Origin: Anaerolineae bacterium
GTDB taxonomy: Bacteria > Chloroflexota > Anaerolineae > UBA1429
NCBI GenBank assembly: GCA_040767425.1
Contig: JAXGON010000003.1
Span: 22,440-86,439 of the forward strand
Length of the DNA stretch: 64,000 nucleotides
Direction of reading: 5' to 3'
Shown: positions 802 through 49,953 of the stretch, one piece after another
How positions within the stretch are numbered: the first letter of the stretch is position 1
Layout of the letters: every line of letters starts with the position of its first letter
Made by a program: the position numbers and the translations under genes
Notes under the pieces: generated by a model
What the model was told of the DNA's origin: nothing
What the model saw: the letters and a program-made list of their open reading frames with translations, nothing else
The model's database searches: none

Positions 802-2735
802 TGGTGCCGACCATGGGTGAGCAGATGACGGCAAAGCGATGGGCGGCGGCTCTGGAGCGAACCGAGCTTTGCTTGGCGCTGCTGGCCGTCGGGCTGGCGT
901 TTGCCGCCGGCGAGCGCATCCCGCAGATGGCCGCTGTGCTGGGACCCACTCTGGTGGCGCTGCTGGGCCTTTTGTGGGGGGCGGGCTGGATGCTCAACGG
1001 CACCCGTCCCCGCATCCCCCCACTCACCGTGCCGGTGCTTCTGTTTCTACTCTCGGCGGGCATCGGGCTCTGGGCCAGCTATGACCGCGAAACGGCGTGG
1101 CCCATCTTTGGCCTGATCCTCTGTGGCACCGGCCTCTTCTGGGCCGCGGCGCGGAGCGCAACCCCCACCCGGCTCTATGCTGTGCTGGCGGCTATGGGGC
1201 TGCTGACGACCTGCCTGGCGATCGGGTTCCTGGCGGGCGACCCCTGGGCCACCCATGACGTCAAGGTGCCTTTGCTGGCAGACTTCGGGAGCCGCGTGGC
1301 ACGCTATTTTCCGAGGCCCGTCGCTGCGACCATGAACCCCAACTGGGCCGGCGGCCTGTTGGCGGCGTCGCTGCCCTGGTTCGTGCCCCTGCTGGCTTTG
1401 GAGCCAGGCCCACTCGCCAACCGACCCCGTCTACGCTGGATGCGCTGGCCACTGGTGGTGGGTTGGAGCCTAGGCATCGGCATCGTCATGCTTGGTCTGG
1501 TGGTGAGCGCGTCGCGGGGAGCTTGGCTGGCGACGTTGGCTACCGGATCAGCGTGGGCCATCTGGCGCCTCTCCCGCAAGCACAACCTGAAACACCGTCT
1601 GGGCATGTTGGGGCTGGCCGGCGGCATCGTCGCACTCGCGGCGGTCGGGGTCGGCAGCCTTATCTGGACCCGCCAGTGGCCCGGGGCGCAGGCTCTGGCT
1701 AGCCGCGTCGCGATTTACCGGTTTCTGCCGACACTGGCCCGCGACTATGCCTATACCGGGGCTGGCCTGACCGGCTTTGACATGCAGTTCTCGACCTATG
1801 CTCTGCTGATCCACGTCGGCTACCTGACCTACGGCCACACCATGCTGCTGGACATCCTGATCGCCCAGGGCATCCTTGGCTTGGCAAGCTATGCCGCCGC
1901 GGTGATTGGTAGCGTGCTCCTCGCCAGCCGCGTCATACGGCAGACGCGCGAACCGCTGGCGCTGGCGGCCGAGGCAGCCTTGGCCAGCCTCACCATTCTC
2001 CTGCTGCACAGCCTGGTCGATGATGTCTTTTACCAGGGCCGCGGGCTGCTGCTGCTCTGGGTGCCGATGGCCACGCTGGCCGCGCTCTCTAGCATGGCCG
2101 GGCCGGTGGGATCGCCGACCCCGATGGTAGCCCCGTCTCGCGTGGGTCAGATGGCCCTCCTGGCGGTGGGCGTGGTCGTGATGGCGTTCCTGGGCATGCG
2201 ATGGCGATCGATCCTGGCCGGCATCCACGCCAACCTAGGCGCCGTGGCCCAGGCCAAGGTCGAGCTGGCGGCCTACGATCCCGAGGCCCGCCCCTGGCTT
2301 AGCTTGGACGCGATTCGCAACGAGGAGGATCTTGGCCCGGCGATCGAGCAGTTTGAGCGTGCCCTAGCTTACGACTCCGCGCAGCTCACCGCGCGCCAGC
2401 GGTTGGCTGGCATCCACTTGGCAAGGGGCCAGGCCGCCCAAGCCCGCACCCATATGGATCAAACCTGGCAGGCTGGACATCGCGATCCGACCACCCGGCT
2501 GCTCTACGGCGACGCGTTGGTTGCCACGGGTGACGCCGTTGGGGCCGCCCAGGCGATCGGCGGCCAGCCTCGAGCGGCCGACCGCCTGCTGCTCCAGGCG
2601 TGGGATCGCTATTGGGAACAGGAGCGGTGGCAGGAGGCCCATGCCGCCTGGGAGGCCGTCCTGTTGATCGAGCCCAAGCACCAGCACGCGGCCTACTGGG
2701 CCGACCAGGCGCGCCAGCGGTTGGCGACGCCATGA
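798..2735 (+). CDS. O-antigen ligase (WaaL/Wzy-like) family polytopic membrane protein with a C-terminal TPR-like region.
   Basis: The 850-aa ORF begins as off-frame Arg/Pro-rich overlap with the upstream gene. The plausible start is ATG 798, an ATGA overlap with the upstream stop. The product has about 10 predicted TM helices, an O-antigen ligase-like core (..WAGGLLAASLPW.., ..SRGAWLA..) and a C-terminal helical-repeat (TPR-like) tail. Confidence 0.65.
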   Translation: MMVPTMGEQMTAKRWAAALERTELCLALLAVGLAFAAGERIPQMAAVLGPTLVALLGLLWGAGWMLNGTRPRIPPLTVPVLLFLLSAGIGLWASYDRETAWPIFGLILCGTGLFWAAARSATPTRLYAVLAAMGLLTTCLAIGFLAGDPWATHDVKVPLLADFGSRVARYFPRPVAATMNPNWAGGLLAASLPWFVPLLALEPGPLANRPRLRWMRWPLVVGWSLGIGIVMLGLVVSASRGAWLATLATGSAWAIWRLSRKHNLKHRLGMLGLAGGIVALAAVGVGSLIWTRQWPGAQALASRVAIYRFLPTLARDYAYTGAGLTGFDMQFSTYALLIHVGYLTYGHTMLLDILIAQGILGLASYAAAVIGSVLLASRVIRQTREPLALAAEAALASLTILLLHSLVDDVFYQGRGLLLLWVPMATLAALSSMAGPVGSPTPMVAPSRVGQMALLAVGVVVMAFLGMRWRSILAGIHANLGAVAQAKVELAAYDPEARPWLSLDAIRNEEDLGPAIEQFERALAYDSAQLTARQRLAGIHLARGQAAQARTHMDQTWQAGHRDPTTRLLYGDALVATGDAVGAAQAIGGQPRAADRLLLQAWDRYWEQERWQEAHAAWEAVLLIEPKHQHAAYWADQARQRLATP

Positions 2736-2748
2736 TAGCAGGTACACC

Positions 2749-5490
2749 GTGAACCCACAGGCTCCCCCTCGAAAGTGGCCTCAAAGCGATACGCGACGCT
2801 GGAAAGCGACCGCTCTCCTCATCATCCTGCTTGCCGCCCTCGCCGCACCAGTCCAGGGCCAAGCGCCCGCTCAGGAGTGGTCCTTTACCACCAACCTGTC
2901 GCGCTCGGGCTCGGCAGCCGATCCGGTCTTGGTGTTGGGGCCCGAAGGAACCATGCAAGCCTTCTGGTGGGATCGTTTCGACGGGCTGATGACGGCCGCT
3001 ATGGACGGGATCGCCTGGCAGGCGGCCACTCCTGCCAACCTGTTGGTTCCCGATCCCAGAGCCATCGCACCGGTGAATGTTGAGGAGCCGCCTGCCCTCA
3101 TCCCCATCGGCATGATGCCACAGATGGTGGCCGATGGCCAAGGGAACGTACACGCCTTTTGGCTGGTCGAGCGCGGCGGATTCGCCGCCCGCACGACCGA
3201 CCCTGTGCCGGCAGCCCCCTCGCTGGCCCACGCCAGTTCGCCCATGGGAGCGTTGGAATGGTCGCAAGCGGAGCTTCTCGTCGAAGGCGCCTTGACCTGG
3301 CGAGTCTTTGCGGATCCCGACGGCGGCCTGCACCTGGCCTATATTCGGACTCTGCACAGCGAGGATCAGCCGGCCGGAGTTTACTACACCCGGCTGGATG
3401 GCGAAACGCTCCAGTGGGAGACGCCACGCCTGGCTCAAGCCAGCATCTATGCCCGGCTGCTCAGCGCCGATGAGGCGCGAGTGGCGGGTGTGGCCAATGG
3501 GACTGGGACGGTGGTACTGGCCTGGTGCGACCCTCGGATGGGAGAGCCGACCTATCTTTGCTCCAGTGACAGCGGCGAGACATGGCGCACCGCCGCTGCT
3601 CCCCTGGAGCATGCCAGCCATCCAGCCCTGGCCTATCTCGGCCCCGGCCGCCTGGTTGCCATCTGGCAGGTAGGGCTCAGCGACAACCAGGTCTCTCATT
3701 ACCAGCAGGTCTCGACCGACGCCGGGCTAACCTGGGGCGAACCGAGGTGGGTTCCCCGCGAGGCCGCCCGCTATGGCGCGCCAGCGCTCCGCCAAGCGGG
3801 GTGGGCTGGCGATGCGTGGCTCGTCTCTGGCGAGGGTGGACCCTATCTTTCGCTCTGTCGCTGGCGCCCCGATCCGTCAGCCGATGCAGGCCAGGGTGAA
3901 TGGTCGTTGGCCAACACGGTGGCCATCAACATCCACGATATCGAGACCGAGCGGACCGTCTCGCTGGAAGAACTCCAGATGGCGGTAGACGACCACTGGC
4001 TGCACGTGGTCGGACGGGGCCAGGATGGCGAGGTGTGGGCCATGCGGCGCGAGACCAGCGGCATCGCCTGGGCATTCTCCTCCGATACTCCTTGGACCGA
4101 ACCGCTCGCCATCTGGGAGGACAATGCGGGAGCCGACATGCCGGCCTTGGTAGGCGACGCCGACGGCACGGTCCACGCCTGGTGGATCGCCGCGGCCGAC
4201 GTGGGGCGATCCGGCGTCGCTCTCTGGTACGCGCAGCGAACGGGAGACGAGTGGTCACCCGCCGCCGCCATCTTTGCCCTAGAGGAGCAGGCCCAGCATC
4301 CCACGGCGACGTTGGTCGAGGGCCGCGTGCATCTGCTGTGGACCTCGGGACGGGTCGGCACCATCGGGCATAGCAGCGTCTTTCAGGATCGGGCCGCGAC
4401 GGCCTCCGAATGGACGACGGTCCGACGGCTGCCCCTGCCCACCGAGGCTGGCGGAGCATCCTCTCCCCAGCTAGTAGCCGACGGCGAGGGCGGACTACAT
4501 GCAATCTACTCCGTCCCCCTCAACGAGAGCCGCGGCATCTACTATGTGCACTCGGAAGATGGAGGCAGCAGTTGGTCCGATCCAATCGCAGTGGTCCACG
4601 CCGCCGAGGCGGGCTGGCCCAGCGTGGATACGCCCGATCTGGCCATCGCAGGGGACGGCTCGCTGTGGGCAACCTGGATCAAGGTGCCGTTGACCGACGG
4701 GCACGGCGAGGCCGTCTACCTGGCGCGCTCTACCGACGGCGGCGCCACTTGGTCGCCGCCCTTGCTGGTCTTCGAGGGGCCGTGTTCGGAGCCACGCCTG
4801 GCCCTCTCGGGCCCAGCGGACCTCCATCTCTTCTGGGTCGATGAAACCGATGCGCGGGTCTGGTCCTACCGCCAATCGGCCGACGGCGGGGCCACCTGGA
4901 CCCCCATCGAGACGGTGCCCGGCATGAGCGGCCTTCGTGGCTCGCCCGACCTGGCCTATGATGCCGGTGGCTTCGTTTACTTGATGGGCGTCAGCTACGA
5001 GGCCAGCGATGGCTGGTTGATGCGACATGCCTCGTGGGACGCGGACAGCTCGGCATGGTCCGACGTAGGGCGGTTTCGGCTCAGTGCCCTATACCAACCC
5101 CGCGGAGGCGTCTCTTTGGCCCTGTTGCCAGAGCGCGGTCAGCTGCACGCCCTGCTGACAGCCAAGAGCCCCGATGCTAATGCCGAGCCAGCTCTGCTCC
5201 ATGCCTACCGGGCTGTCACACCCACCGAGCCGTACCGCCCCGTCGTCGTTCGCTCAGTGGCGAGCGAGATCGAGCCGGCCGAATCGACAGAACCTGCGCC
5301 CCCACCCACCGCCTGGGTGGCCATCGAACCGGCCCCCGCCGCCGCGTCGGGCATCTCCCTGGGGCCGTTCTTCCTGCCGATGACCGGCGTGTTGGGCATT
5401 GTGGTAGCGGCGGTGATAGTCCTGGTAGTTGCCCTGGTTCACAGCCTGCGGCCTGGCCGGCACTGGCGGTCTTGGACGCGGTCGCGATGA
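2749..5490 (+). CDS. Secreted, C-terminally membrane-anchored BNR/Asp-box repeat protein (sialidase/glycoside-hydrolase-like).
   Basis: GTG start; signal peptide (..ALLIILLAALAAPVQG/QA). It carries multiple Asp-box motifs (SSDSGETW, STDAGLTW, SEDGGSSW, STDGGATW, SADGGATW), a Pro/Glu-rich linker and a C-terminal TM helix (GVLGIVVAAVIVLVVALV). Confidence 0.7.
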   Translation: MNPQAPPRKWPQSDTRRWKATALLIILLAALAAPVQGQAPAQEWSFTTNLSRSGSAADPVLVLGPEGTMQAFWWDRFDGLMTAAMDGIAWQAATPANLLVPDPRAIAPVNVEEPPALIPIGMMPQMVADGQGNVHAFWLVERGGFAARTTDPVPAAPSLAHASSPMGALEWSQAELLVEGALTWRVFADPDGGLHLAYIRTLHSEDQPAGVYYTRLDGETLQWETPRLAQASIYARLLSADEARVAGVANGTGTVVLAWCDPRMGEPTYLCSSDSGETWRTAAAPLEHASHPALAYLGPGRLVAIWQVGLSDNQVSHYQQVSTDAGLTWGEPRWVPREAARYGAPALRQAGWAGDAWLVSGEGGPYLSLCRWRPDPSADAGQGEWSLANTVAINIHDIETERTVSLEELQMAVDDHWLHVVGRGQDGEVWAMRRETSGIAWAFSSDTPWTEPLAIWEDNAGADMPALVGDADGTVHAWWIAAADVGRSGVALWYAQRTGDEWSPAAAIFALEEQAQHPTATLVEGRVHLLWTSGRVGTIGHSSVFQDRAATASEWTTVRRLPLPTEAGGASSPQLVADGEGGLHAIYSVPLNESRGIYYVHSEDGGSSWSDPIAVVHAAEAGWPSVDTPDLAIAGDGSLWATWIKVPLTDGHGEAVYLARSTDGGATWSPPLLVFEGPCSEPRLALSGPADLHLFWVDETDARVWSYRQSADGGATWTPIETVPGMSGLRGSPDLAYDAGGFVYLMGVSYEASDGWLMRHASWDADSSAWSDVGRFRLSALYQPRGGVSLALLPERGQLHALLTAKSPDANAEPALLHAYRAVTPTEPYRPVVVRSVASEIEPAESTEPAPPPTAWVAIEPAPAAASGISLGPFFLPMTGVLGIVVAAVIVLVVALVHSLRPGRHWRSWTRSR

Positions 5491-40875: not shown

Positions 40876-42768
40876 ATGAGCTACGGACACTGGGGCAAGA
40901 TGTTGCGCGTCAACCTGACCACTGGCGATATCGCCGTCGAGAGCCTCGACGAGGACTTTCTTCGGCGCTACGTCGGCGGCTGGGGGTTCATCGCGCACAC
41001 CCTGCTGCGCGAGCTGCCGGCGGGCGTCGACCCGCTGAGCCCTGAGAACCGCCTTATCTATGCCACCGGCCCCATCACCGGCCAGGCCATCGCCGGTGGC
41101 GGCCGCCACATGATCGGCGCCAAGTCGCCCCTCACCGGCGGCTTTTCGGGGTCCGAGGCCGGCGGCTATTTCGGTGCCGAGCTCAAGCGCGCCGGCTGGG
41201 ACATGATCATCTTTGAGGGCGCCTCGGAAAAGCCGGTCTACCTCTGGATCCAGGACGATCAGGTGGAGCTGCGCTCCGCCGAGCACCTGTGGGGACGCGA
41301 GATCTGGGAGGTCCAGGAAGCCATCCGCGAGAAGCTAGGCGACAAGTGGATTCGCGTCTCTCAGTGTGGCCCCGCCGGAGAACGGCTAGTGCGGGTCAGC
41401 AATATCCTGCACGACGCCACCCGCGCCGCCGGACGCACCGGCCTGGGCGCGGTCATGGGCAGCAAAAAGCTGCGCGCCGTGGCCGTACGCGGCAGCCAGT
41501 CGCCACCCGTCCACGATCCTGACGCGCTGAAAGATCTCGCCAAATGGTTCCGCGACCACTTTCGCGAGACCGGCTCCGTGGCCTATGCCACGCTGGGCAC
41601 GGTGCGCATGGTCCGCGTCCACAACGAAGCCGGCGGGCTGCCCACCCGAAACTTTTCCCAGGGCGTCTTTGAGGGCTTTGAGAATCTGACCTCTGAAGCG
41701 CAGCTCGAGGTGACCCAACGGCGCGATACCTGCTACGGCTGCCCCATCCGTTGCAAGTGGGTGGTCTCTATCGAGGACGAGACTTATCCCGCCGACCCCA
41801 AGTACGGCGGCCCCGAATATGAGACCACGGGCGCCTTTGGCTCCTGCTGTGGCATCGACGACATCCGCATCACCTGCCACGCCAACCAGCTCTGCAACGC
41901 TTACGGCCTAGACACCATCGGCGTGGGGGTGACCATCGCCTGGGCCATGGAGTCGTTCGAGCGCGGCGTGCTCACCACGGCCGATACCGACGGTCTCGAT
42001 CTGCACTTTGGCAACGGCGATGCGATCATCACCCTGATTCACAAGATCGCCCGTCGCGAGGGGTTCGGCGACCTGCTCTCCCACGGCTCGCGCTATGCCG
42101 CCCAGCAGGTCGGCCAGGGCTCGCTAGCATGGGCCGTCCAGATCAAGGGCCAAGAGGTGGCCATGCACGACCCCCGGATCAAGTACGGCCACGGGTTGGG
42201 CATCGCCGTCTCGCCCACCGGCGCCGACCACATGCACTCGGTGCATGACAGCGGCTATACTACTGACGATGGCATCCACGACCTCAAGCCGCTGGGCGTG
42301 TTGCACCCCTTGCCCAAGGACGACCTCAGCGCCGAAAAGGCCCGCATGGTGCGCCGCGCCATGATGTGGCGCGTGCTGGACAATCTCACTGGCATCTGCA
42401 TGTTCCAGATGTGGCCGCCCCAGAAAAAGGCCGAGATCATCCAGGCCGCCACGGGCTGGAACACCTCGGTGCTAGAGCTGTGGCAGGCAGCCGAGCGCGC
42501 CTATGACATGGCCCGCGCCTTTAACGCCCGCGAGGGCTTTGGCCCCGATGACGACGACCTGCCGCCGCGCATGTACGAGCACTTTGCCGAGGGGCCAGCC
42601 GCCGGCCAGGCGCCCACCCGCGAGCAGTTTGCCGCCGCCAAGCAGGCGTTTTACGCCTACATGGGGTGGGATCCGAAGACGGCCGCGCCCACGCGCGAGA
42701 GGCTGGAGGAGCTGGACGTGCCCTGGGTGGCAGAGCTGCTGGAGGGGGCGACGAGACGCGATGCTTAG
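40876..42768 (+). CDS. aor: Tungsten-containing aldehyde:ferredoxin oxidoreductase (AOR family).
   Basis: MSYGHWGKMLRVNLTTGDI..; tungstopterin-binding and [4Fe-4S] region (..CYGCPIRCKW..); ..GADHMHS..; AOR domains 2/3. ATG 40876 after GGAGGGGG. Confidence 0.9.
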   Translation: MSYGHWGKMLRVNLTTGDIAVESLDEDFLRRYVGGWGFIAHTLLRELPAGVDPLSPENRLIYATGPITGQAIAGGGRHMIGAKSPLTGGFSGSEAGGYFGAELKRAGWDMIIFEGASEKPVYLWIQDDQVELRSAEHLWGREIWEVQEAIREKLGDKWIRVSQCGPAGERLVRVSNILHDATRAAGRTGLGAVMGSKKLRAVAVRGSQSPPVHDPDALKDLAKWFRDHFRETGSVAYATLGTVRMVRVHNEAGGLPTRNFSQGVFEGFENLTSEAQLEVTQRRDTCYGCPIRCKWVVSIEDETYPADPKYGGPEYETTGAFGSCCGIDDIRITCHANQLCNAYGLDTIGVGVTIAWAMESFERGVLTTADTDGLDLHFGNGDAIITLIHKIARREGFGDLLSHGSRYAAQQVGQGSLAWAVQIKGQEVAMHDPRIKYGHGLGIAVSPTGADHMHSVHDSGYTTDDGIHDLKPLGVLHPLPKDDLSAEKARMVRRAMMWRVLDNLTGICMFQMWPPQKKAEIIQAATGWNTSVLELWQAAERAYDMARAFNAREGFGPDDDDLPPRMYEHFAEGPAAGQAPTREQFAAAKQAFYAYMGWDPKTAAPTRERLEELDVPWVAELLEGATRRDA

Positions 42769-43231
42769 GTGTCGCGCAGCAATACGCGCGCCATAGAGCC
42801 AGTGCTCGTTTGCGACTGGATGCAGGATTATCTCAAATGACCTCAAATTGAACGATAGCTGGTGTAAACTGCAAGCATGGTTGGGAGGGCCAAGAAAAGG
42901 GTCCGCTGCTGGGGTCATACCCGGCACCCGGCCGTGTTTTGCTGTGAATCGATCATGGCGCGCGGCAGACTCGCCAACCAGCCACACCGCCAAATACACC
43001 TCGGTATCTGGCAGCGGCTGACAAGAGGCATGTCCCATCGGACAACCTCGAGACAGCAAGCTATCGCTCAAGCCGTCTACACGGCTGCGCTCGGTATCGC
43101 TTACTGAGGGGAGCGGTTGCCGCGCGGACACGGCTGAACAGGATCGGCTCCGATTGGTAGTGACTGCCATTGACGCTTGCGTCCTGGAAGAAGGATCTAC
43201 CGTCGGCCGTACCGATCCTGCTCAATTCCCC

Positions 43232-43260
43232 TTGACCTCTCCCCCCTCCGCAGCTATAGT
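43232..43260 (+). promoter_or_regulatory. Sigma-70-like promoter upstream of the 964-aa gene.
   Basis: TTGACC (43232-43237), 17 nt spacer, TATAGT (43255-43260), about 85 nt before the start at 43347. Confidence 0.5.
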
Positions 43261-43346
43261 GTCATCAGAATAGCGCTCCCCGGCAGCCTCGTCCGACCGT
43301 TAGGCGCCGCCGCCTGCTTGCGACGCCCAGCTCGAAGGACGCAGAC

Positions 43347-46241
43347 GTGAAACGCACATCTCGACCGCCCAAGGCTGTCGTAGATGGGCCTCGGCTCTCC
43401 CACCGCGGCACCCTGGTCTGCGCCGCGCTGCTCCTCTTGGTCGGAAGCGCCTGCATCACCACCGAGTATGGCTTGACGATCACCGCGCCGGACCAGGATG
43501 GCGAATCCGAACTCATTGCCACCATCTCAGAGAGGCTTCACGCCGAGTACGTTGACGCCGCCCTGCAGGCCAACGCCGAGTATCGGGCCGATCTCGCGGC
43601 CGTCGGCGGTACGGTGAGCGAGGACCCTTTCCCCACCACCATCGAGGGCCTCTCCGATCTCATGAGCAGCATCCCCACCGCCCAAGAGATGCGCGACGAC
43701 GGCATGGACGTTGACGAGTCCTACGACGGTTTCGTCGCCACCCGGACCATCCCCTTGTCCGAGGCTCTCGCGAACCTGGAATCCTCCGAAGAGAAGATGA
43801 TCGTCATCGACGAGAGCGCGCCCCCCGCCATACGTTACATCTTTGACCAAGTGGTCCCCATAGGCGATGCCGAGAACGACATGGTCGCCCAGTTGGAGGA
43901 GATAGATCGTTACCGGCGCGAGGGCTTGCCGCCGAAACCCAAACTGGTGATCCGCGAGGGAGAGATCGTCGCCGAAGGCGAGGTCGACTATCTCGCGCTG
44001 TTCGGCTCCCTCGGCGAAAAGAGCGAACTGGAGGCGTGGTACTGGCTTCGCATCCTGGTGGAGACTGGCATCCCCACGTTCAGCTTTTCCGTCTCCATGC
44101 CCGGCGAGGTCGTTCTTTATACAATAGATGGCGTGCCGGGCGGAAACCTGGTAGACAACCGCGTCACCTTTGTGTTTGACGAAGCTTTCATGCGGCGCCT
44201 CGGCACCGGCGACCACCGCCTACATGTGGAGACGGTGTACATCCCCGGGCAGACGCCCGCATCCCGCGACGACCGCGATGGCGACGGCATCCCTGATGAC
44301 GACGACGCCTGCCCCAACCAGTACGGCCCGCCCCCCGATGGCTGCCCCACCGACGCCTTGGCACTAGTCTGCGTGCCCGCTGAGCCCGCAGCGTATGCGC
44401 AGGTCACCTGCACGGCCCGTGTGCCCGAAGCGCACCGCACCGACACGCTCACCTTCGACTGGTACCTGGACGGCGCCCATCAGGGGACGAGCACACAGCC
44501 CACCTGGGTTTGGGGATCGGCCGAGCCGGGGAAACACGACGTGGGCGCTGACGCCATTGGCGATGGCTGGAGCTCCAGCGCATCTATTCCGCTCGACGTC
44601 TCCGAGGACCGCGATCTGGTAGCGACCCTGGGATACGCCCCCGACCCTCCCGTGGCAGACAAGTCGCTGATCCTTAGCGTACAGGTGGACGGGAGCCGCC
44701 CCGATGAGACGCTCACCTACCGCTGGTTCTTGGACGACCAACTGGCCTCAGAGGCCGAAACCATGGCATGGGTGGCTATCACCGGCACCCACACCGTCCA
44801 GGTGGAGGTACGCGGCGAGGGCGACCGCCTCGCTGTCGACCGCCGCAGCGTGGCCGTCCCGCCGCTCCAGCCAGCCTTCTACGAGGCCACCCCGGGAGCG
44901 CAGGCCGCGTTTGACATCTCTTACCTACAATGCACCGAGAGCATCACCACCGGCGAAAGCGTCGAATGCACCGTGGGCATTACCCGCGATGACAGCAAGG
45001 TGGGAGCGCTTGGCGTAGTTTGGTTCGTGGACGGCGCGTTGGCGCAACAGGAAGAGTCGGTGGGTTTGAGGGCCGCTTTCTCTCTAGAGAACCCGTCTCC
45101 CGGCCAGCACACGATCCAAGTGCGCGTCATTGACCCCGAATCGGGCGACGCCGCGGCCAGATCCGCCGTTGTGCGCGTCGACGAGGGGGCAGGGGGCCGC
45201 ATCCCTACCGCGGCAGCTGCCGGCGCAGCCGCCGGAACGGCCGGCACCATAGGCGCGTGGCTGTGGTTGGAGTGGTGGCGCGCCCGCATGGCGCAGCAGC
45301 GTGTCGAAGCAGCCGCCCGCGCAGCCGAGGCACGCAAGGCCGCGGAGGAGGCCGCCGATGAGGCCCTGCGACAGGACCGGCAACGCTGGTACGACCAAGT
45401 GGAGGAGCTCAACCGCGTTGAGAGGCAGCAGCGTGCTTACCGCGAGGCCCTTGGCGAGTACTATGACGCCGCGCTGGATCATCTCGATGCAGTCATCAAG
45501 CTAGGGCACCTGGAACGCGATCACGCCCAGCTCTCCAAACGACTGGCGGAGCTCAAGGTCCAGTTCGACGTCGCGCGTTGCACCGCCGTAACCGACGGTG
45601 TACTTGAAATCGCCGACATAATGGTGGATACGCTGCTGTGGAACGCCGGCGGCGGCCCCGAGTGGCTCTCGACGGTGCCCGGCGGCTATGGCAAGGATTG
45701 GCTAAAAGCCCTCCTCAAGGCCGCCGCCCGCCAGAAAGTTCGCGAGGCCTACGGGGTTCCGGGGCACGAACCCGATTTTCTGCGCAAACAGTTTCTCGAT
45801 TCCGCTGGCATCCCGACAGACTATTTCGTCGATTGGGACGTCGCTACACGCGATAAGGGGCTACCGCGCATCGTCTTCGACCTGGGGGTGCCGCGTGGGG
45901 TCCCCAAAACCTTGCTGATCCAGCAGCTTGAGAAACGCCTCCCGACCCGGGACCTGGGCAAGAACCTGGGATACGGCTACAGTGTGTTCGAGACCGGCGC
46001 AACCGCCGCCGTTGACACGGCGGACAAGATGGAAGAGTGTCGCAAGCTGCGGCGGCAGATGAGCACCACGCTCGATCAGGTGCTGCGCCGCGAGCGAGCC
46101 ATCCCGGATGCCCAGGACGACGCCGCCCAGGCCACCCGCGTGCTACAACAGCGCACGCAACAGGTAGCCGCCGCGCAACCATCCGCCGCGGATCGGGCCG
46201 TCAATACCCAAGCGCGCTGGGAAGCGATGCAGCAACGCTAG
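43347..46241 (+). CDS. Large hypothetical lipoprotein-like single-pass membrane protein: extracellular region with an Asp-rich Ca-binding-like motif and three tandem Ig-like repeats, a TM helix, and a cytoplasmic coiled-coil/alpha domain.
   Basis: N-terminus MKRTSRPP..LLLLVGSAC (lipobox-like LVGSAC). DDRDGDGIPDDDDACPNQ (thrombospondin-type-3-like Asp motif). Three approximately 110-aa repeats (..TFDWYLDGAHQG..HDV.., ..TYRWFLDDQLASE..HTVQVEV.., ..VVWFVDGALAQQ..HTIQVRV..). TM AAAGAAAGTAGTIGAWLWLEWW at about residues 610-635. About 330-aa Glu/Arg/Gln-rich helical C-terminal domain. No recognisable catalytic motif. Confidence 0.6.
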   Translation: MKRTSRPPKAVVDGPRLSHRGTLVCAALLLLVGSACITTEYGLTITAPDQDGESELIATISERLHAEYVDAALQANAEYRADLAAVGGTVSEDPFPTTIEGLSDLMSSIPTAQEMRDDGMDVDESYDGFVATRTIPLSEALANLESSEEKMIVIDESAPPAIRYIFDQVVPIGDAENDMVAQLEEIDRYRREGLPPKPKLVIREGEIVAEGEVDYLALFGSLGEKSELEAWYWLRILVETGIPTFSFSVSMPGEVVLYTIDGVPGGNLVDNRVTFVFDEAFMRRLGTGDHRLHVETVYIPGQTPASRDDRDGDGIPDDDDACPNQYGPPPDGCPTDALALVCVPAEPAAYAQVTCTARVPEAHRTDTLTFDWYLDGAHQGTSTQPTWVWGSAEPGKHDVGADAIGDGWSSSASIPLDVSEDRDLVATLGYAPDPPVADKSLILSVQVDGSRPDETLTYRWFLDDQLASEAETMAWVAITGTHTVQVEVRGEGDRLAVDRRSVAVPPLQPAFYEATPGAQAAFDISYLQCTESITTGESVECTVGITRDDSKVGALGVVWFVDGALAQQEESVGLRAAFSLENPSPGQHTIQVRVIDPESGDAAARSAVVRVDEGAGGRIPTAAAAGAAAGTAGTIGAWLWLEWWRARMAQQRVEAAARAAEARKAAEEAADEALRQDRQRWYDQVEELNRVERQQRAYREALGEYYDAALDHLDAVIKLGHLERDHAQLSKRLAELKVQFDVARCTAVTDGVLEIADIMVDTLLWNAGGGPEWLSTVPGGYGKDWLKALLKAAARQKVREAYGVPGHEPDFLRKQFLDSAGIPTDYFVDWDVATRDKGLPRIVFDLGVPRGVPKTLLIQQLEKRLPTRDLGKNLGYGYSVFETGATAAVDTADKMEECRKLRRQMSTTLDQVLRRERAIPDAQDDAAQATRVLQQRTQQVAAAQPSAADRAVNTQARWEAMQQR

Positions 46242-46255
46242 GAGAGGATAGGACT

Positions 46256-47149
46256 ATGCCCACGCTGCGCATGTACACACCGGCCGCTCTCGCCGAGATG
46301 GCGCGCGAGGTCCGCCTGCATCGCGCCGACAAGATCATGACGGACGTCGATCTGGCCCTGTTGCTGGCGCGTTGCGTCCTGCGCGATGACGCTGGCGCCT
46401 ACTTTTACCTCGATCCGCGCGATGAGAGCTGGTATCGCTGGGATGACGCCACATGGCAGCCATCCACCGCGCCCGAAGGACCTCTGGCGGGAGAGGATGG
46501 GTTGCCTGTGTCAATACGTCGCCCAGAGATTCCACCGGAGGAGGTGGTAACACCCGGGGAGCGCGTCTCGGCGGCCCAGGCGTTGGCAAACATCCGCCAG
46601 ACGGTGTGGGAAGCTTTTCGTGACGGCCGCTTGGATAGCGACGCCGCCGCCATCCTCATGGCGCGACAAGTGCTGGTGGAGCGCTCGGGGATCGCGTGGA
46701 CCGTCGGGATCGCGACGGGGCACTGGTACCGCTTTTGGCCGGAGGGCTGGAGCGAAGCGGCGCCGCCCCCCATGGATGACGAGTTGTGTGGCCGCGGAGA
46801 GCTGGGATCGCTGTTGGAGAACCCCAGCGGTGAGAACGATCCGCCCGACGCGCTGGCGCGCTTTCTCGTCGCCGGCGTGGGAGTCCTGCCGGAGGCTATC
46901 ACCCCTCCCTGGACCCCTCCCGACGCCATCCCCGCCGCCGCCATGAAGCTATATCGCGTATGCCCGAGCTGCAAAGCCACCATCGCCGCCGAGAGCCGCT
47001 TCTGCCCCGTCTGTCGCGCCGTGCGGCCGGAGCCGTTGCCCCCGAAAGGCGACAGCGCTCCTGAGAAACAGCCTGAGGCCCGATGCTCCCGATGTGGCGC
47101 CCCCCTGCGCGCTGGCGACGCCTTTGCCTCCGGTGCGGTGCGCCCGTAA
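46256..47149 (+). CDS. Hypothetical cytoplasmic protein with a C-terminal multi-zinc-ribbon (CxxC) array, apparently truncated by a frameshift (the array continues to 47244).
   Basis: ATG 46256 lies 9 nt after GGAGAGG and 15 nt after the upstream stop. C-terminus CPSC-x10-CPVC, CSRCGAP; stop TAA 47147-47149. A further C[L]RCGAP..CIRCGAQ-x7-CPAC segment is encoded in the +2 frame from 47125 to TGA 47242-47244. Confidence 0.55.
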   Translation: MPTLRMYTPAALAEMAREVRLHRADKIMTDVDLALLLARCVLRDDAGAYFYLDPRDESWYRWDDATWQPSTAPEGPLAGEDGLPVSIRRPEIPPEEVVTPGERVSAAQALANIRQTVWEAFRDGRLDSDAAAILMARQVLVERSGIAWTVGIATGHWYRFWPEGWSEAAPPPMDDELCGRGELGSLLENPSGENDPPDALARFLVAGVGVLPEAITPPWTPPDAIPAAAMKLYRVCPSCKATIAAESRFCPVCRAVRPEPLPPKGDSAPEKQPEARCSRCGAPLRAGDAFASGAVRP

Positions 47150-47331
47150 GCGAGTCCAATCACTGCATCAGGTGCGGCGCACAGATCCCAAAGGGAGCCC
47201 GGTTCTGCCCAGCGTGCGGTGCCAGGCAGGATGAGAAGCCTTGACGACCCTCGTGGCGCAGAACTGCGCCCTCACCCAGTCCGTGGCTGAGGGCACCTGC
47301 ATCAAGCGCTGCCGGCCGTCACGGGCGACGC

Positions 47332-47510
47332 GGCAGGCGGCCGAGCGCGCCTACGATATGGCCTGGGCCTTTAACGCCCGCGGGGCTTTGGCCCCGATGA
47401 CGACGACCTGCCGCCGCGCATGTTCGAGCATGCCGACGGGTCCAGCCGCCGGCCAGGCGCCCACGCGCGAAAGGCTGGAGAGCGGACGTGCCCTGGGTGG
47501 CAGCTGGGGG
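47332..47510 (+). pseudogene. Degraded partial duplicate of the 3' end of the AOR gene (gene remnant).
   Basis: Nucleotide-level similarity (about 90 %) to 42482-42752 (..GCCGAGCGCGCCTA[CT]GA[TC]ATGGCC..TTTAACGCCCGC..GGCCCCGATGACGACGACCTGCCGCCGCGCATG..). It translates to ..QAAERAYDMAWAFNAR.. and then loses frame. An internal deletion of about 75 nt lies between the short direct repeats CCCAC(C/G)CGCGAG. Confidence 0.6.
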
Positions 47511-47984
47511 GGCGTAGAGATCGAGGGGCCGGCTGTGCCCGACGCCCGTGTGTGCCACGGTAGAGTACAGCAGACCGCATCTTGCCAACAGCGAACCCCC
47601 ATTCGCCCTACGACCCCAGCCAGCCGCCGCGGCGCCATAGGCCGCCAGCGTCTCGTCATTCGAGCGCTGAGCAAGCGATCGGGCCATCATCGGTCCTCGA
47701 GATATCGTCGCCTACCCCACGCATGCCCCACGTTAGTCGTTTGGGCCTCCGCCCGCCAGAGATCGGCGTGGTGTCCACCCACATCTGCATGGGCTGGCCT
47801 CTGCTCGACCGAAAGCATGGCCACCGTAGGCCTCGTCCACCCAGGGCCAACGATGGGCCAGGCGAACCGAACAGCTTGGAAAGTGGATGAATCCTCGTTG
47901 GCCGGCCGGCATAGCGCGTCCATATTCGAAAACGAATCGGTGGCAGTGCACCCTCCCGATGCGAGATACACCGGAAAGACCGCC

Positions 47985-48308
47985 TCATACTGGACCAGTG
48001 GGATCATCGCCGAAAGCCCAGCTCAGGATGGCATGGTTCAAGCTCGCCTCGATGGCATCGGTCGGGTTCGACAGATGCGGGTCTATACGCGCACCCCACC
48101 AGCCAGTCCGCCGATTCTGCATGGTGAGCGCATGGTCGCGGGCGTCAGTGGCGGCGGCAGAGATCAAGACTTTGCCAAGCTCGGCCTCTTCCAGCCCAGC
48201 CAGCATGCTTCGAGAGACGTCACACGCCATCGCATGCACGTGAATGTCGATCAGCACGTTTGCACCTCCAAGGCTAGCAACCTTGCATCCTGAGATTCTA
48301 GCGCGCAC
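47985..48308 (-). pseudogene. N-terminal fragment of a metal-dependent (amidohydrolase-type) hydrolase.
   Basis: ..GGANVLIDIHVHAMACD.. (the hHxH metal-binding start of the amidohydrolase/TIM-barrel hydrolase fold). The frame breaks after about 107 codons. Downstream minus-strand ORFs (47656-48007) look like shifted continuations. Confidence 0.4.
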
Positions 48309-49615
48309 GTCGGCAGCTCATGTTCTTATCTGAAAGTCGGGGCACACTGTTCTCTCAAATGAAAACGTCACCGGGGAGCAGCATGAGACCACAGGGTTGG
48401 ACCTGAAGCAACGTCTGAACGAATCCAACAAAGCGCTATGCACTGAAGACTGAAGAGGGCTTTACGCTTCATCATACACCCGCTCCTCACACCGAATCGG
48501 ATACGACGTCTGAACGGCAAGTTCCCGACCTCAGCCGACGCAGGAAAGAGCGAGGTGCACGTTCGCCACGATCCTGAAGTAGACGAGGTGCGCATCGTCT
48601 ACCGGGCTTACGACGGCGCCCAAGCGCACCCGCCGCGGACTATGCCGGAAGCATCCAGGCACAGCCACGGCATCTCGTCGTAACCCGCCCTGCAGTGAAG
48701 CAGGTCGGATCGCGGGCCATCAGCGTCTCGGATATCGTGCGGCGCGGGCATCCTGCAACGGGTCCGACAGGCAGCCACGGCGTCAGCGCCGTCCCATAGG
48801 CCAGCGCCGGTTAGGAGGGTCCCGCCAAGGGCGTCCTGGGTGTCCACCCCGGGGCATCGAGGTGGACTGATCTGCACCCGCCGCCGAAAGCGGGCGGGCA
48901 CCGCCAGACCTTGCATCTCGTGGACGTCGCCAGCGGCTGGATGAATGGGCCAGGTGCGACGCAGCTATCTTGTGATGCAGGATGAGTTTTAGCGGTGTGC
49001 CCGGCGTTTGCCTTTCTCCGAAGAATCCGGACAATGGCGGCAATCCGCCAGCCCATGAATACATCAAAGCGCTCCCATCTGGTCCAGTTCTGGTTGGGGA
49101 TCATCTTCACCGGCGAAGCCCAGCTCAGGCGTCCAGCCGCCCCGATGGCAAAAGAACGACAACCGCTTCGTCGAGCACGCAACGGGTTCGATCCAGAGGT
49201 GAACGGGATCGCGACTCCGGCCGAGCAGGCCCGAGCCAGCCGAGATCCGCCGATCATATCTTCAGCCGGCATGACACACAAGACCTATGACCGTGAGACT
49301 CAAGTGACGTCGCGGGGCGTTTCCAGCGTGCGGCGGGCCGGAGCGCAGAGGATCACGCAGCGCCTCTACGACCAACCGATCCGCTAACATTACGCCAGCA
49401 GCACAGGAGGACGTCCGCTCTTGTGAAGCTGCCGGGTCACAGCAGATGGAGCGATGCACGTGTGTACTACTACGATCATCCGTTACACCTCACGGCGAAA
49501 GGAGGAGGCCTCTCTCCGGTGACGTTATCAAACCGAGGCCTTCTAGCGTGCACGTCTGGCGGACACGCAACGTCAACGTCCCTCGCGACGCTTAGCAGAG
49601 GCTGTGGGGGCGTCT

Positions 49616-49822
49616 ATGATACCGCTGCAACGGGACCTCTACGGCCAGGCCGAGGCTTGGTCCACTCAATCGGAGCTAATGGTGCGCCACATCTATGCCT
49701 ACATGCGCGCCATGGAGACGTGGCGCTATGAGCGGCTGCCCATCGACGAGGGACGCCCTATGATGCCCGATCCCACTATGGCCACGCCGCTGGAGCCTGC
49801 CTATCCCGGGGATGACGACTAG
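49616..49822 (+). CDS. Small hypothetical acidic protein (68 aa) in an otherwise gene-poor region.
   Basis: ATG 49616 after GGGGGCG. The product MIPLQRDLYGQAEAWSTQSELMVRHIYAYMRAMETWRYERLPIDEGRPMMPDPTMATPLEPAYPGDDD has non-repetitive, protein-like composition, unlike the surrounding ORFs. Confidence 0.3.
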   Translation: MIPLQRDLYGQAEAWSTQSELMVRHIYAYMRAMETWRYERLPIDEGRPMMPDPTMATPLEPAYPGDDD

Positions 49823-49883
49823 CCGAATCAGCAGACGAGAGGACCCGACGACGGGGGCGAGCGTGGCCCTTCGCCTCTGTTCC

Positions 49884-49912
49884 TTGACGCCCACCCCCAC
49901 CGCGGCTATGGT
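49884..49912 (+). promoter_or_regulatory. Sigma-70-like promoter for the GH38 locus.
   Basis: TTGACG (49884-49889), 17 nt spacer, TATGGT (49907-49912); RBS GGGGGAA before ATG 49954. Confidence 0.5.
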
Positions 49913-49953
49913 GTCCCAAACGTCAATCGCCACATTCCTGGGGGAACGCCATC

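Follow-up and report, generated by a model that had tools for sequence, protein, structure and literature searches.

The 64,000-nucleotide (nt) stretch of Anaerolineae DNA analysed here (contig JAXGON010000003.1, positions 22,440 to 86,439 of the forward strand; hereafter the window) contains two adjacent genes, A and B, which appear to open an operon of a family not described before, A-B-C, centred on the Anaerolineae within the Chloroflexota. Gene A encodes a predicted surface protein, gene B a zinc-ribbon protein and gene C, which is found in relatives, a small membrane protein of four predicted helices. The distribution of the three genes suggests that the ancestral unit was A-B-C and that the clade of the window lost C. 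We tentatively propose that A-B(-C) is a receptor-adaptor system, serving to relay a signal or to couple states, with A as the surface protein and B as its cytoplasmic adaptor. A sequence-only reading of this DNA had described A and B as a novel cassette, the first gene of which it could not place in any described family. Both genes proved to be real, with A encoding 964 amino acids (aa) that include a lipobox-type signal, an acidic N-terminal region and three immunoglobulin (Ig)/PKD repeats, and beyond the generic Ig/PKD and zinc-ribbon domains the architecture indeed matches no described family.

Linkage of A, B and C across relatives

A word-indexed search returned only two homologues of A, P0001 (95%) and P0002 (39%), and four of B (P0003-P0006). 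An exhaustive profile search with A yielded 206 proteins at E<=1e-3, 56 of them at E<=1e-30. Sub-domain hidden Markov models (HMMs) divided this family into a signal peptide, a variable N-region, one to several Ig/PKD/BiPBP_C repeats, a conserved membrane segment, a juxtamembrane DRQxWY helix and differing C-terminal domains. Loci were gathered from genome contigs (12, retrieved with the motif [GA]WLW[LA]EW), from metagenome contigs (12, with a 6-sequence query), from contigs encoding the exact proteins and from a search on the B side. Eleven of the 12 genome loci come from Chloroflexota/Anaerolineae metagenome-assembled genomes (MAGs) and the remaining one from an Actinomycetota MAG. The operons fall into two types, of which the window represents type 1.

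The linkage of A and B is constant. Every type-1 A gene with readable downstream sequence is followed by a type-1 B gene, in about 24 further places, some of them redundant, and the suggestion that the two are true partners is borne out by this co-occurrence. B stands directly after A in the window, L001, L003-L008, L017 and L019-L034, wherever downstream sequence exists. In most relatives the stop codon of A and the start codon of B overlap as ATGA, unlike in the window, where the ATG of B at 46256 lies 14 nt past the TAG of A and its TAA ends at 47149. The third gene follows B in 16 loci of both operon types, where the contig continues (for example, L005 5165-5638, L007 12448-12921 and L008 2273-2746, with 13 more loci), and is absent only from the clade of the window (the window, L004, L003 and L002). 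Its product is 158-208 aa long and predicted to form four helices; the motifs GLxWG, RRS.LHL.FW..S.ALTQ and AG.T.G are conserved in it. Eight of 14 members match DUF1453/CcdC (PF07301; best E 1.6e-5), and the bit scores shown, 19.1 and 17.6, lie below the curated cut-off of 24.6. The likeness consists in a size of about 150-200 aa and in the four predicted helices. In Bacillus, CcdC is encoded in a ccdA-ccdB-ccdC operon context, which is unrelated to A-B-C, and we know of no established mechanism for it. Literature searches on DUF1453, and on double zinc ribbons together with Chloroflexi and PKD, found nothing relevant to the module.

The two operon types show which parts of the module vary together. 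Type-1 A C-termini (about 294-321 aa) pair without exception with type-1 B N-domains. In type-2 operons (L010-L016) the C-terminus of A is 630-658 aa long and unrelated to that of type 1, B has an unrelated N-region with zero or one ribbon, and the C gene is the same as in type 1. Profile-profile comparison finds that type-1 and type-2 B share the zinc ribbon only; similarly, the juxtamembrane helix is the only cytoplasmic part common to type-1 and type-2 A (hhalign probability 97%). Ectodomains, for their part, are swapped. The type-1 core (aa 746-890 of A) stands behind quite different ectodomains in P0008, P0013, P0023, P0109 and P0145, and the type-1 cytoplasmic domain, B and C are all kept in P0109, which is Cys-rich and has no Ig repeat, and in P0023, which has an N-domain and no Ig repeat. 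Judged from these comparisons, ectodomains can be exchanged, the A tail and B N-domain act like one co-evolving cassette, and the elements that stay constant are the zinc ribbon and C. The GAWLWLEW segment of A was considered as a required contact for C and rejected, because C is retained in P0109 and P0023 even though the membrane segments of these two are ordinary ones.

Type-2 tails carry an invariant V-T-[VI]-[ST]-G-T-G-[AS]-[RK]-P ... T-D-x-D-x-T motif (GTG-x13-DxD; 6 sequences) together with an H-P-D motif. Judged by eye only, these motifs, which are not features of the window protein, look like a signature of Pol-beta-type nucleotidyltransferases (hG[GS]-x9-13-DhD), and searches of the tail against Pfam, NCBIfam and PDB profiles gave no match. 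P0007 (1275 aa) has a cytoplasmic tail of a third kind, with a HELDH (HExxH-like) motif at about 985-995, which hints that further effector-type variants may exist behind the same module of Ig repeats and membrane segment. In L007 (6232-9006) and L005 (2-1738) a gene for a subtilisin-like (S8) secreted protease lies directly 5' of type-1 A-B-C; the window has no counterpart of it.

Architecture of the window proteins

Gene A begins with a GTG at 43347, where its orthologues in L004 (92% nt identity) and L003 (about 70%) have ATG, and stops with the TAG at 46241. The dedicated promoter that had been proposed for the pair holds up: TTGACC-17-TATAGT is the sole sigma-70-like match across 42700-47600 (4.9 kb; 0.5 expected), and a TTGAC-N16-18-TAnnnT box lies 5' of gene A in L004, L003, L001/L020, L022, L007/L027, L024 and L026, so that at least eight other loci have a promoter-like box ahead of the gene. 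The N-terminus of A has a basic n-region and then a strongly hydrophobic h-region, the most hydrophobic segment of the protein, which runs up to LVGSAC (Cys36). This sequence conforms to the PROSITE PS51257-type lipobox pattern and is atypical in having Gly, not Leu, at position -3. Essentially all A relatives bearing the N-domain have an L-[AG]-C-[IML]-[TS]-x-E box, and those without the N-domain have ordinary A-x-A signals. Because the N-domain always comes after such a box, the lipobox reading is supported, and A is a predicted lipid-anchored lipoprotein.

The N-domain itself, 264 aa with a net charge of -33, also follows the lipobox in many proteins with other C-termini, and Pfam has no match for it or for those relatives. 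In the linker behind it, the thrombospondin-type-3 (TSP3)-like Asp motif noticed earlier is present, at a score below the Pfam threshold (TSP_3, 11 bits, E 0.35, cut-off 25); a PDB profile search matches the linker to the TSP3 segment of the OmpA-family chain 5wtl at E 0.0011. The motif is kept in the consensus of 16 A relatives and deleted in the 39% homologue P0002; it is a dispensable linker feature. The three repeats that follow are genuine Ig/PKD-fold domains. Pfam PKD (PF00801) scores 27.0 bits on the whole protein against a cut-off of 23.5, the HMMs of the three repeats match one another, and Foldseek, whose hits for the A model were all of the Ig/Fn3/PKD kind, aligns repeat 3, the one moderately modelled repeat (block-mean predicted local distance difference test, pLDDT, about 54-70), with chains of the Fn3, Ig and PKD folds (E as low as 1e-4). 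The fold proposed for the repeats is confirmed; the shared end strand H-x-x-Q-V-x-V is not, since repeat 1 ends in HDVGADA.

A single membrane helix had also been proposed. The sole candidate in A is the segment IPTAAAAGAAAGTAGTIGAWLWLEWW, with RAR right after it, which is strongly conserved (W638, W640 and E642 are invariant across 16 relatives) and, as the second most hydrophobic stretch of the protein, of marginal hydrophobicity. Over the approximately 320 residues after IPTAAAAGAAAGTAGTIGAWLWLEWW-RAR, AlphaFold2 (AF2) predicts a long helix, a middle part that it does not resolve and a second long helix. The first of these belongs to an unbroken helix over residues 632-766, with pLDDT about 75 for about 660-740. 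In the core, D757, K783, K787, K791, G821, G851, K854 and E882 are invariant in a 14-sequence alignment, and no PDB or Pfam match was found for it.

Gene B, as it stands, is interrupted near its 3' end. The window protein scores 29.2 bits with Pfam Zn_ribbon_3 (cut-off 27) and 25.3 with Zn_Ribbon_1 (cut-off 25), and its intact homologue P0004 reaches 52.6 bits with DZR (cut-off 27.3). Where the 84%-identical P0004 reads GDAFCLRCG, window B has GDAF followed by ASG. Comparison with the intact 329-aa P0004 and P0005 places the absent T in a TTTT run at 47123-47125; the next frame carries LRCGAPVSESNHCIRCGAQIPKGARFCPACGARQDEKP and then a stop, up to 47244. Repaired, B has 329 aa with six CxxC pairs, that is, three zinc ribbons; the array and its frameshift had been recognised from the letters alone, with a count of at least four pairs that is now replaced by six. 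The out-of-frame tail is matched by an HMM at E 9.6e-18. As the 38 codons 3' of the frameshift retain every Cys, the break is a mutation of recent date or else a sequencing error in the homopolymer.

The two tandem modules of B lie within its N-terminal 175 residues and match each other with an hhalign probability of 97% (E 6.8e-11). Each has a helix and then a Trp-rich beta-meander, in the pattern ...LLAR..(L/F)RD..G.YW..D....RWYRW....W....P. AF2 models B best in the first beta-meander (pLDDT about 75-79), and Foldseek on the B model returned nothing significant. A linker, FL..G.G.LPEP.T.PW.PP, precedes the ribbons, with G207, P212, E213, W219 and P222 invariant in 12 B sequences. Pfam recognised only the ribbons in the 12 B proteins. 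DUF2510 and SHOCT were considered for the repeat and dropped, as neither is listed in the Pfam scans (12 B proteins, E<=10, among the 25 most frequently matched families, plus 18 families for P0004). A 595-607-aa protein whose gene stands two genes ahead of A in a relative's locus (L030 1348-3171, L032 1558-3345) combines an N-terminal zinc ribbon with one B-type helix/Trp-rich module; because the module is thus also present in another zinc-ribbon protein, it is an independent, mobile domain.

We found no match for the N-ectodomain, the type-1 core, the B module or the type-2 tail in Pfam, NCBIfam, PADLOC or PDB sequences and profiles, and PDB profile searches with full A, B, the type-1 tail, C and the type-2 tail gave only Ig, TSP3, zinc-ribbon and coiled-coil noise. 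Only the Ig/PKD repeats, the TSP3-like loop and the DZR ribbons seem to belong to described families. PKD/Ig-like (BiPBP_C, Big) surface proteins resemble A in its three repeats, and relatives score on BiPBP_C and PKD, but those domains are generic spacers and do not account for the N-domain, membrane segment, tail or partners of A. Similarly, DZR and Zn_ribbon_1/3 proteins (PF12773, PF13240, PF13248) share with B the canonical ribbon array at its C-terminus; Pfam defines a ribbon of about 25-45 aa only, whereas the duplicated 64-aa module and the LPEPxTxPW linker of B are undescribed. The module would therefore be of an undescribed kind, where novelty means no detectable relationship and not a demonstrated new mechanism, and good structural models might still reveal a known fold in it.

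Table 1. Features of the A-B locus in the window, with the type-2 tails of relatives in the last row
Feature	Position	Strand	Basis or remark
Sigma-70-like promoter TTGACC-17-TATAGT	43232..43260	+	Upstream of gene A
Gene A (964 aa), predicted single-pass surface protein of type I (N-out, C-in)	43347..46241	+	Open reading frame call
Signal peptide with lipobox-like LVGSAC (Cys36)	43347..43454	+	Lipobox pattern and hydrophobicity
Acidic N-terminal ectodomain (aa 37-300), unclassified	43455..44246	+	Charge, profile matches
Asp/Pro-rich linker with one TSP3-like motif DDRDGDGIPDDDDACPNQ	44247..44357	+	Below-threshold Pfam, PDB match
Three Ig/PKD-like repeats (aa 338-420, 421-505, 520-612)	44358..45182	+	Pfam PKD, HMM cross-matches, Foldseek
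Ala/Gly/Trp-rich predicted transmembrane segment IPTAAAAGAAAGTAGTIGAWLWLEWW	45201..45278	+	Hydrophobicity and conservation
Juxtamembrane long helix with DRQRWYD...N..ER motif (aa 645-745)	45279..45581	+	AF2, hhalign
Type-1 cytoplasmic core (aa 746-890; TAVTDGVLEIAD, GKDWLKALLKAAARQK, PRG..K, ..ET) and C-terminal helix (891-964)	45582..46238	+	
Shine-Dalgarno-like AGGAGAGGA for gene B	46240..46248	+	Direct reading of the sequence
Gene B as it stands (297 aa), zinc-ribbon protein without signal peptide, predicted cytoplasmic	46256..47149	+	Pfam, homologues
Two tandem modules of about 64 aa in B, helix plus Trp-rich beta (aa 10-73, 108-171)	46283..46768	+	hhalign
Conserved linker motif FLVAGVGVLPEAITPPWTPP of B	46862..46921	+	Alignment
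Three zinc ribbons of B and original stop	46961..47244	+	Frame translations, alignment to P0004/P0005
B ribbon 1	46961-47014	+	In frame
B ribbon 2	47084-47139	+	Split by the frameshift
B ribbon 3	47164-47217	+	Out of frame
Original stop of B	47242-47244	+	
Frameshift site in B, TTT where relatives have TTTT (Phe-Cys codons)	47123..47125	+	Comparison with relatives
Decayed direct duplicate of the aldehyde:ferredoxin oxidoreductase (AOR) 3' end	47332..47510	+	Original at 42482-42740
Type-2 tails with GTG...DxD motif	L010 10430-12400, L011-L015; also P0009, P0012		

The window copy and its surroundings

The window is syntenic with L003, from the Anaerolineae MAG E05-057 (about 70% nt identity), in the order AOR, A, B, minus-strand amidohydrolase and sulfatase, and L004 is 92% identical over 42703-47361. 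The GC composition of the A-B cassette shows no anomaly. The idea that the pair lies in a recent insertion is contradicted by this synteny and composition. Since the MAG of L003 (JBNGEB01) also holds a paralogous A-B-C locus, L008, the AB-only locus is itself a derived paralogue. The window copy is a reduced paralogue, with C lost in its clade and the last one and a half ribbons of B out of frame; a trans-acting C elsewhere in the genome of the organism is possible. Measured against L004, the ratio of nonsynonymous to synonymous substitution rates (dN/dS) is 0.155 for A, in its ecto- and cytoplasmic parts alike, and 0.27 for residues 1-290 of B; because these values are low, A and most of B are maintained by purifying selection.

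Immediately 3' of B, and 4.85 kb from its original, lies the duplicated AOR fragment, with 77-98% identity in blocks and internal deletions. The 92%-identical L004 has the beginning of this fragment too, up to the point within it where the contig breaks off, and nothing of it follows B in L003; this suggests an old rearrangement or segmental duplication around A-B. Farther on are a degraded Amidohydro_2 gene on the minus strand (about 47764-48256; 36% identity over 184 aa, gapped, with the intact genes of L003 and L002) and a 68-nt fragment of a sulfatase gene at 49673-49740, 85% identical to L002. In L003 the A orthologue is split near residue 160 into overlapping frames, 411-980 and 853-3378, whether by a frameshift or through faulty assembly. 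Taken with the frameshift in window B, this split shows that the AB-only clade carries several reading-frame defects. The spacer between AOR and gene A is unusually long in the window (578 nt, as compared with about 130 nt in L003), and at 42878-42934 (+) it holds a match to the full length of the Rfam DUF3800-VI RNA motif that is below threshold (32.4 bits, where the gathering score is 35; E 0.0012).

A candidate receptor-adaptor system and its alternatives

The topology that we propose for the pair follows from its parts. B is probably cytoplasmic, because it has no signal peptide and carries Cys4 zinc ribbons, and the N-domain and Ig repeats of A would be outside because of the N-terminal signal and lipobox. 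Since the B N-domain co-varies with the A tail, that tail should be cytoplasmic as well, and the Ala/Gly/Trp segment must therefore span the membrane, despite its marginal hydrophobicity. The arrangement of an outside ectodomain and an inside helical domain, put forward in the sequence-only reading, thus appears to be the only one compatible with a co-varying zinc-ribbon partner that lacks a signal. In the mechanism we envisage, A would be a lipid-anchored, single-pass N-out/C-in protein whose variable ectodomain binds something outside the cell, and whose membrane segment and long juxtamembrane helix carry a cytoplasmic core of about 220 aa. The duplicated N-terminal module of B would dock onto this core. 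B would then act as an adaptor, and its zinc ribbons, the only part constant between the operon types, could couple the complex to a further partner, for which the best candidate in most relatives is the four-helix, CcdC-like C. In this way binding outside the cell would be connected, through the module, with a response in the cytoplasm or the membrane. By analogy, transmembrane chemoreceptors and other bitopic sensors also combine an ectodomain with a membrane segment and a long helix, which in A is joined by a conserved distal region and a return helix, and they bind a soluble adaptor, as we propose for A. They differ from A, which has one membrane segment, not two, and an N-terminal lipobox; its helical-hairpin geometry comes from the low-confidence AF2 model; and no MCPsignal, HAMP or other signalling domain was found in A by Pfam or NCBIfam, with PDB profiles giving coiled-coil noise only.

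Several observations weigh against this proposal. The putative membrane segment averages below 1.2 on the Kyte-Doolittle scale, and its Hessa sum, crudely calculated, is +3.8. Mean pLDDT is only 41.8 for A and 51.6 for B, from shallow alignments (3 sequences for A, 4 for B), so that the models are poor. Co-inheritance in an operon can by itself give co-variation of neighbouring genes. Pfam, NCBIfam and PDB profile searches found no kinase, cyclase or DNA-binding output domain in A or B, in agreement with the earlier remark that no catalytic or DNA-binding motif is recognisable, and because none is recognisable in the two proteins, 'signalling' is meant here as an architectural analogy. As for the window itself, tblastn and HMM searches located no gene C elsewhere in it, the approximately 2.7 kb at 47250-49950 contain gene fragments and no intact gene, and a copy that lacks C, has a frameshifted B and sits amid such fragments may be on its way out.

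Indeed, it could be argued that the window pair is nothing but a non-functional leftover of an A-B-C operon, given the missing C, a frameshift that removes 1.5 zinc ribbons, and a downstream region reduced to pieces of AOR, amidohydrolase and sulfatase genes. We regard this as improbable: the dN/dS values against the 92% relative are low for both genes, the arrangement of A and B without C persists in L003 and L002 at 60-70% identity, the promoter is conserved, and a homopolymer frameshift with intact downstream codons is compatible with a sequencing error. A more serious competitor is a structural role, in which A would serve as an adhesin, sheath protein or cell-cell junction tether of filamentous Anaerolineae, its tail held by B (and C) and no signal relayed. 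Ig/PKD repeats, a TSP3 motif of the Ca-binding type and an acidic ectodomain are typical of adhesins, the ectodomains of relatives are highly diversified (partners of the N-domain include dockerin, EGF-like and PD40 domains), no enzymatic or DNA-binding output domain was found, and the family is mostly confined to one filamentous lineage. A simple anchor, however, needs no conserved tail of 300-650 aa that co-varies with a dedicated partner, and the invariant GTG...DxD of type-2 relatives may point to catalysis. The tether is accordingly somewhat unlikely in our view, and we favour the receptor-adaptor system over a passive anchor because of these large, conserved, partner-specific tails and the GTG-x13-DxD motif.

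The swapping of cytoplasmic domains behind a constant membrane segment is also what one might expect of a membrane-anchored conflict or anti-phage module, in which the ectodomain would sense a phage or competitor, the tail cassette would trigger, and C would disrupt the membrane in the manner of RexA/RexB. The nucleotidyltransferase-like and HELDH motifs of relatives, the small 4-TM (four-transmembrane) nature of C, the presence of several paralogues in one genome and the rearrangement scars at the locus fit such a role, and abortive-infection pairs of the RexA/RexB type likewise combine, by analogy, a soluble partner and a small 4-TM protein in one operon, as C and its neighbours do in relatives. 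Yet those pairs have no sequence similarity to the module, no PADLOC match and no mobile or phage context to connect them with it, and C is absent from the window. With PADLOC-DB 2.0 the sole match in the window was that of an Ala-rich helix of A to LeoBC (15.7 bits, E 0.0015), and nothing was returned for the A, B and C proteins of either type; viral contigs, phage records and plasmid records hold no copies of the module. The family is lineage-restricted and not patchy across phyla, its neighbours are genes of carbohydrate metabolism, with neither defence islands nor genes of mobile elements among them, synteny of the locus extends to about 70% identity, and the nucleotidyltransferase reading is of a motif seen by eye, without Pfam, NCBIfam or PDB support. 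Defence, one of the roles considered in the first description of the pair, is therefore quite improbable. Another such role, an anti-sigma factor with its regulator, draws only on the general idea of a membrane protein gene beside a gene for a zinc-binding soluble protein and is highly improbable: Pfam and NCBIfam find no sigma-70 region 2/4 or DNA-binding domain in B or 12 B relatives, A has no zf-HC2 or RskA domain, the ribbons of B are of DZR and not zf-HC2 type, and the predicted N-out/C-in topology of A is opposite to that of known single-pass anti-sigma factors.

A bolder form of the receptor-adaptor proposal is that A-B-C constitutes a new class of bacterial type-I transmembrane receptors, mainly of Chloroflexota, with swappable ectodomains on at least two co-evolving cassettes, each of which pairs a receptor tail with its own zinc-ribbon adaptor, one of them nucleotidyltransferase-like, and output via C. 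We consider this unlikely on present evidence; if true, however, the signalling logic of A-B-C would have no described bacterial counterpart.

Filamentous and for the most part uncultured, Anaerolineae abound in digesters, sediments and mats, and to our knowledge almost nothing is known of the ways in which they perceive their environment or adhere to it. In lineages represented only by MAGs, it is common to find conserved operons whose function is unknown. Taken alone, the window holds a reduced, possibly decaying paralogue that demonstrates no novel mechanism, and it is the finding at the level of the family that is worth following up. There, a module of three genes, conserved and under selection and with some 200 relatives that can be detected, offers three candidates for new domain families in the N-ectodomain, the cytoplasmic core of A and the N-module of B, and it leads to the predictions that the A tail would bind B, that the B ribbons would couple to C, and that type-2 proteins may possess nucleotidyltransferase activity.

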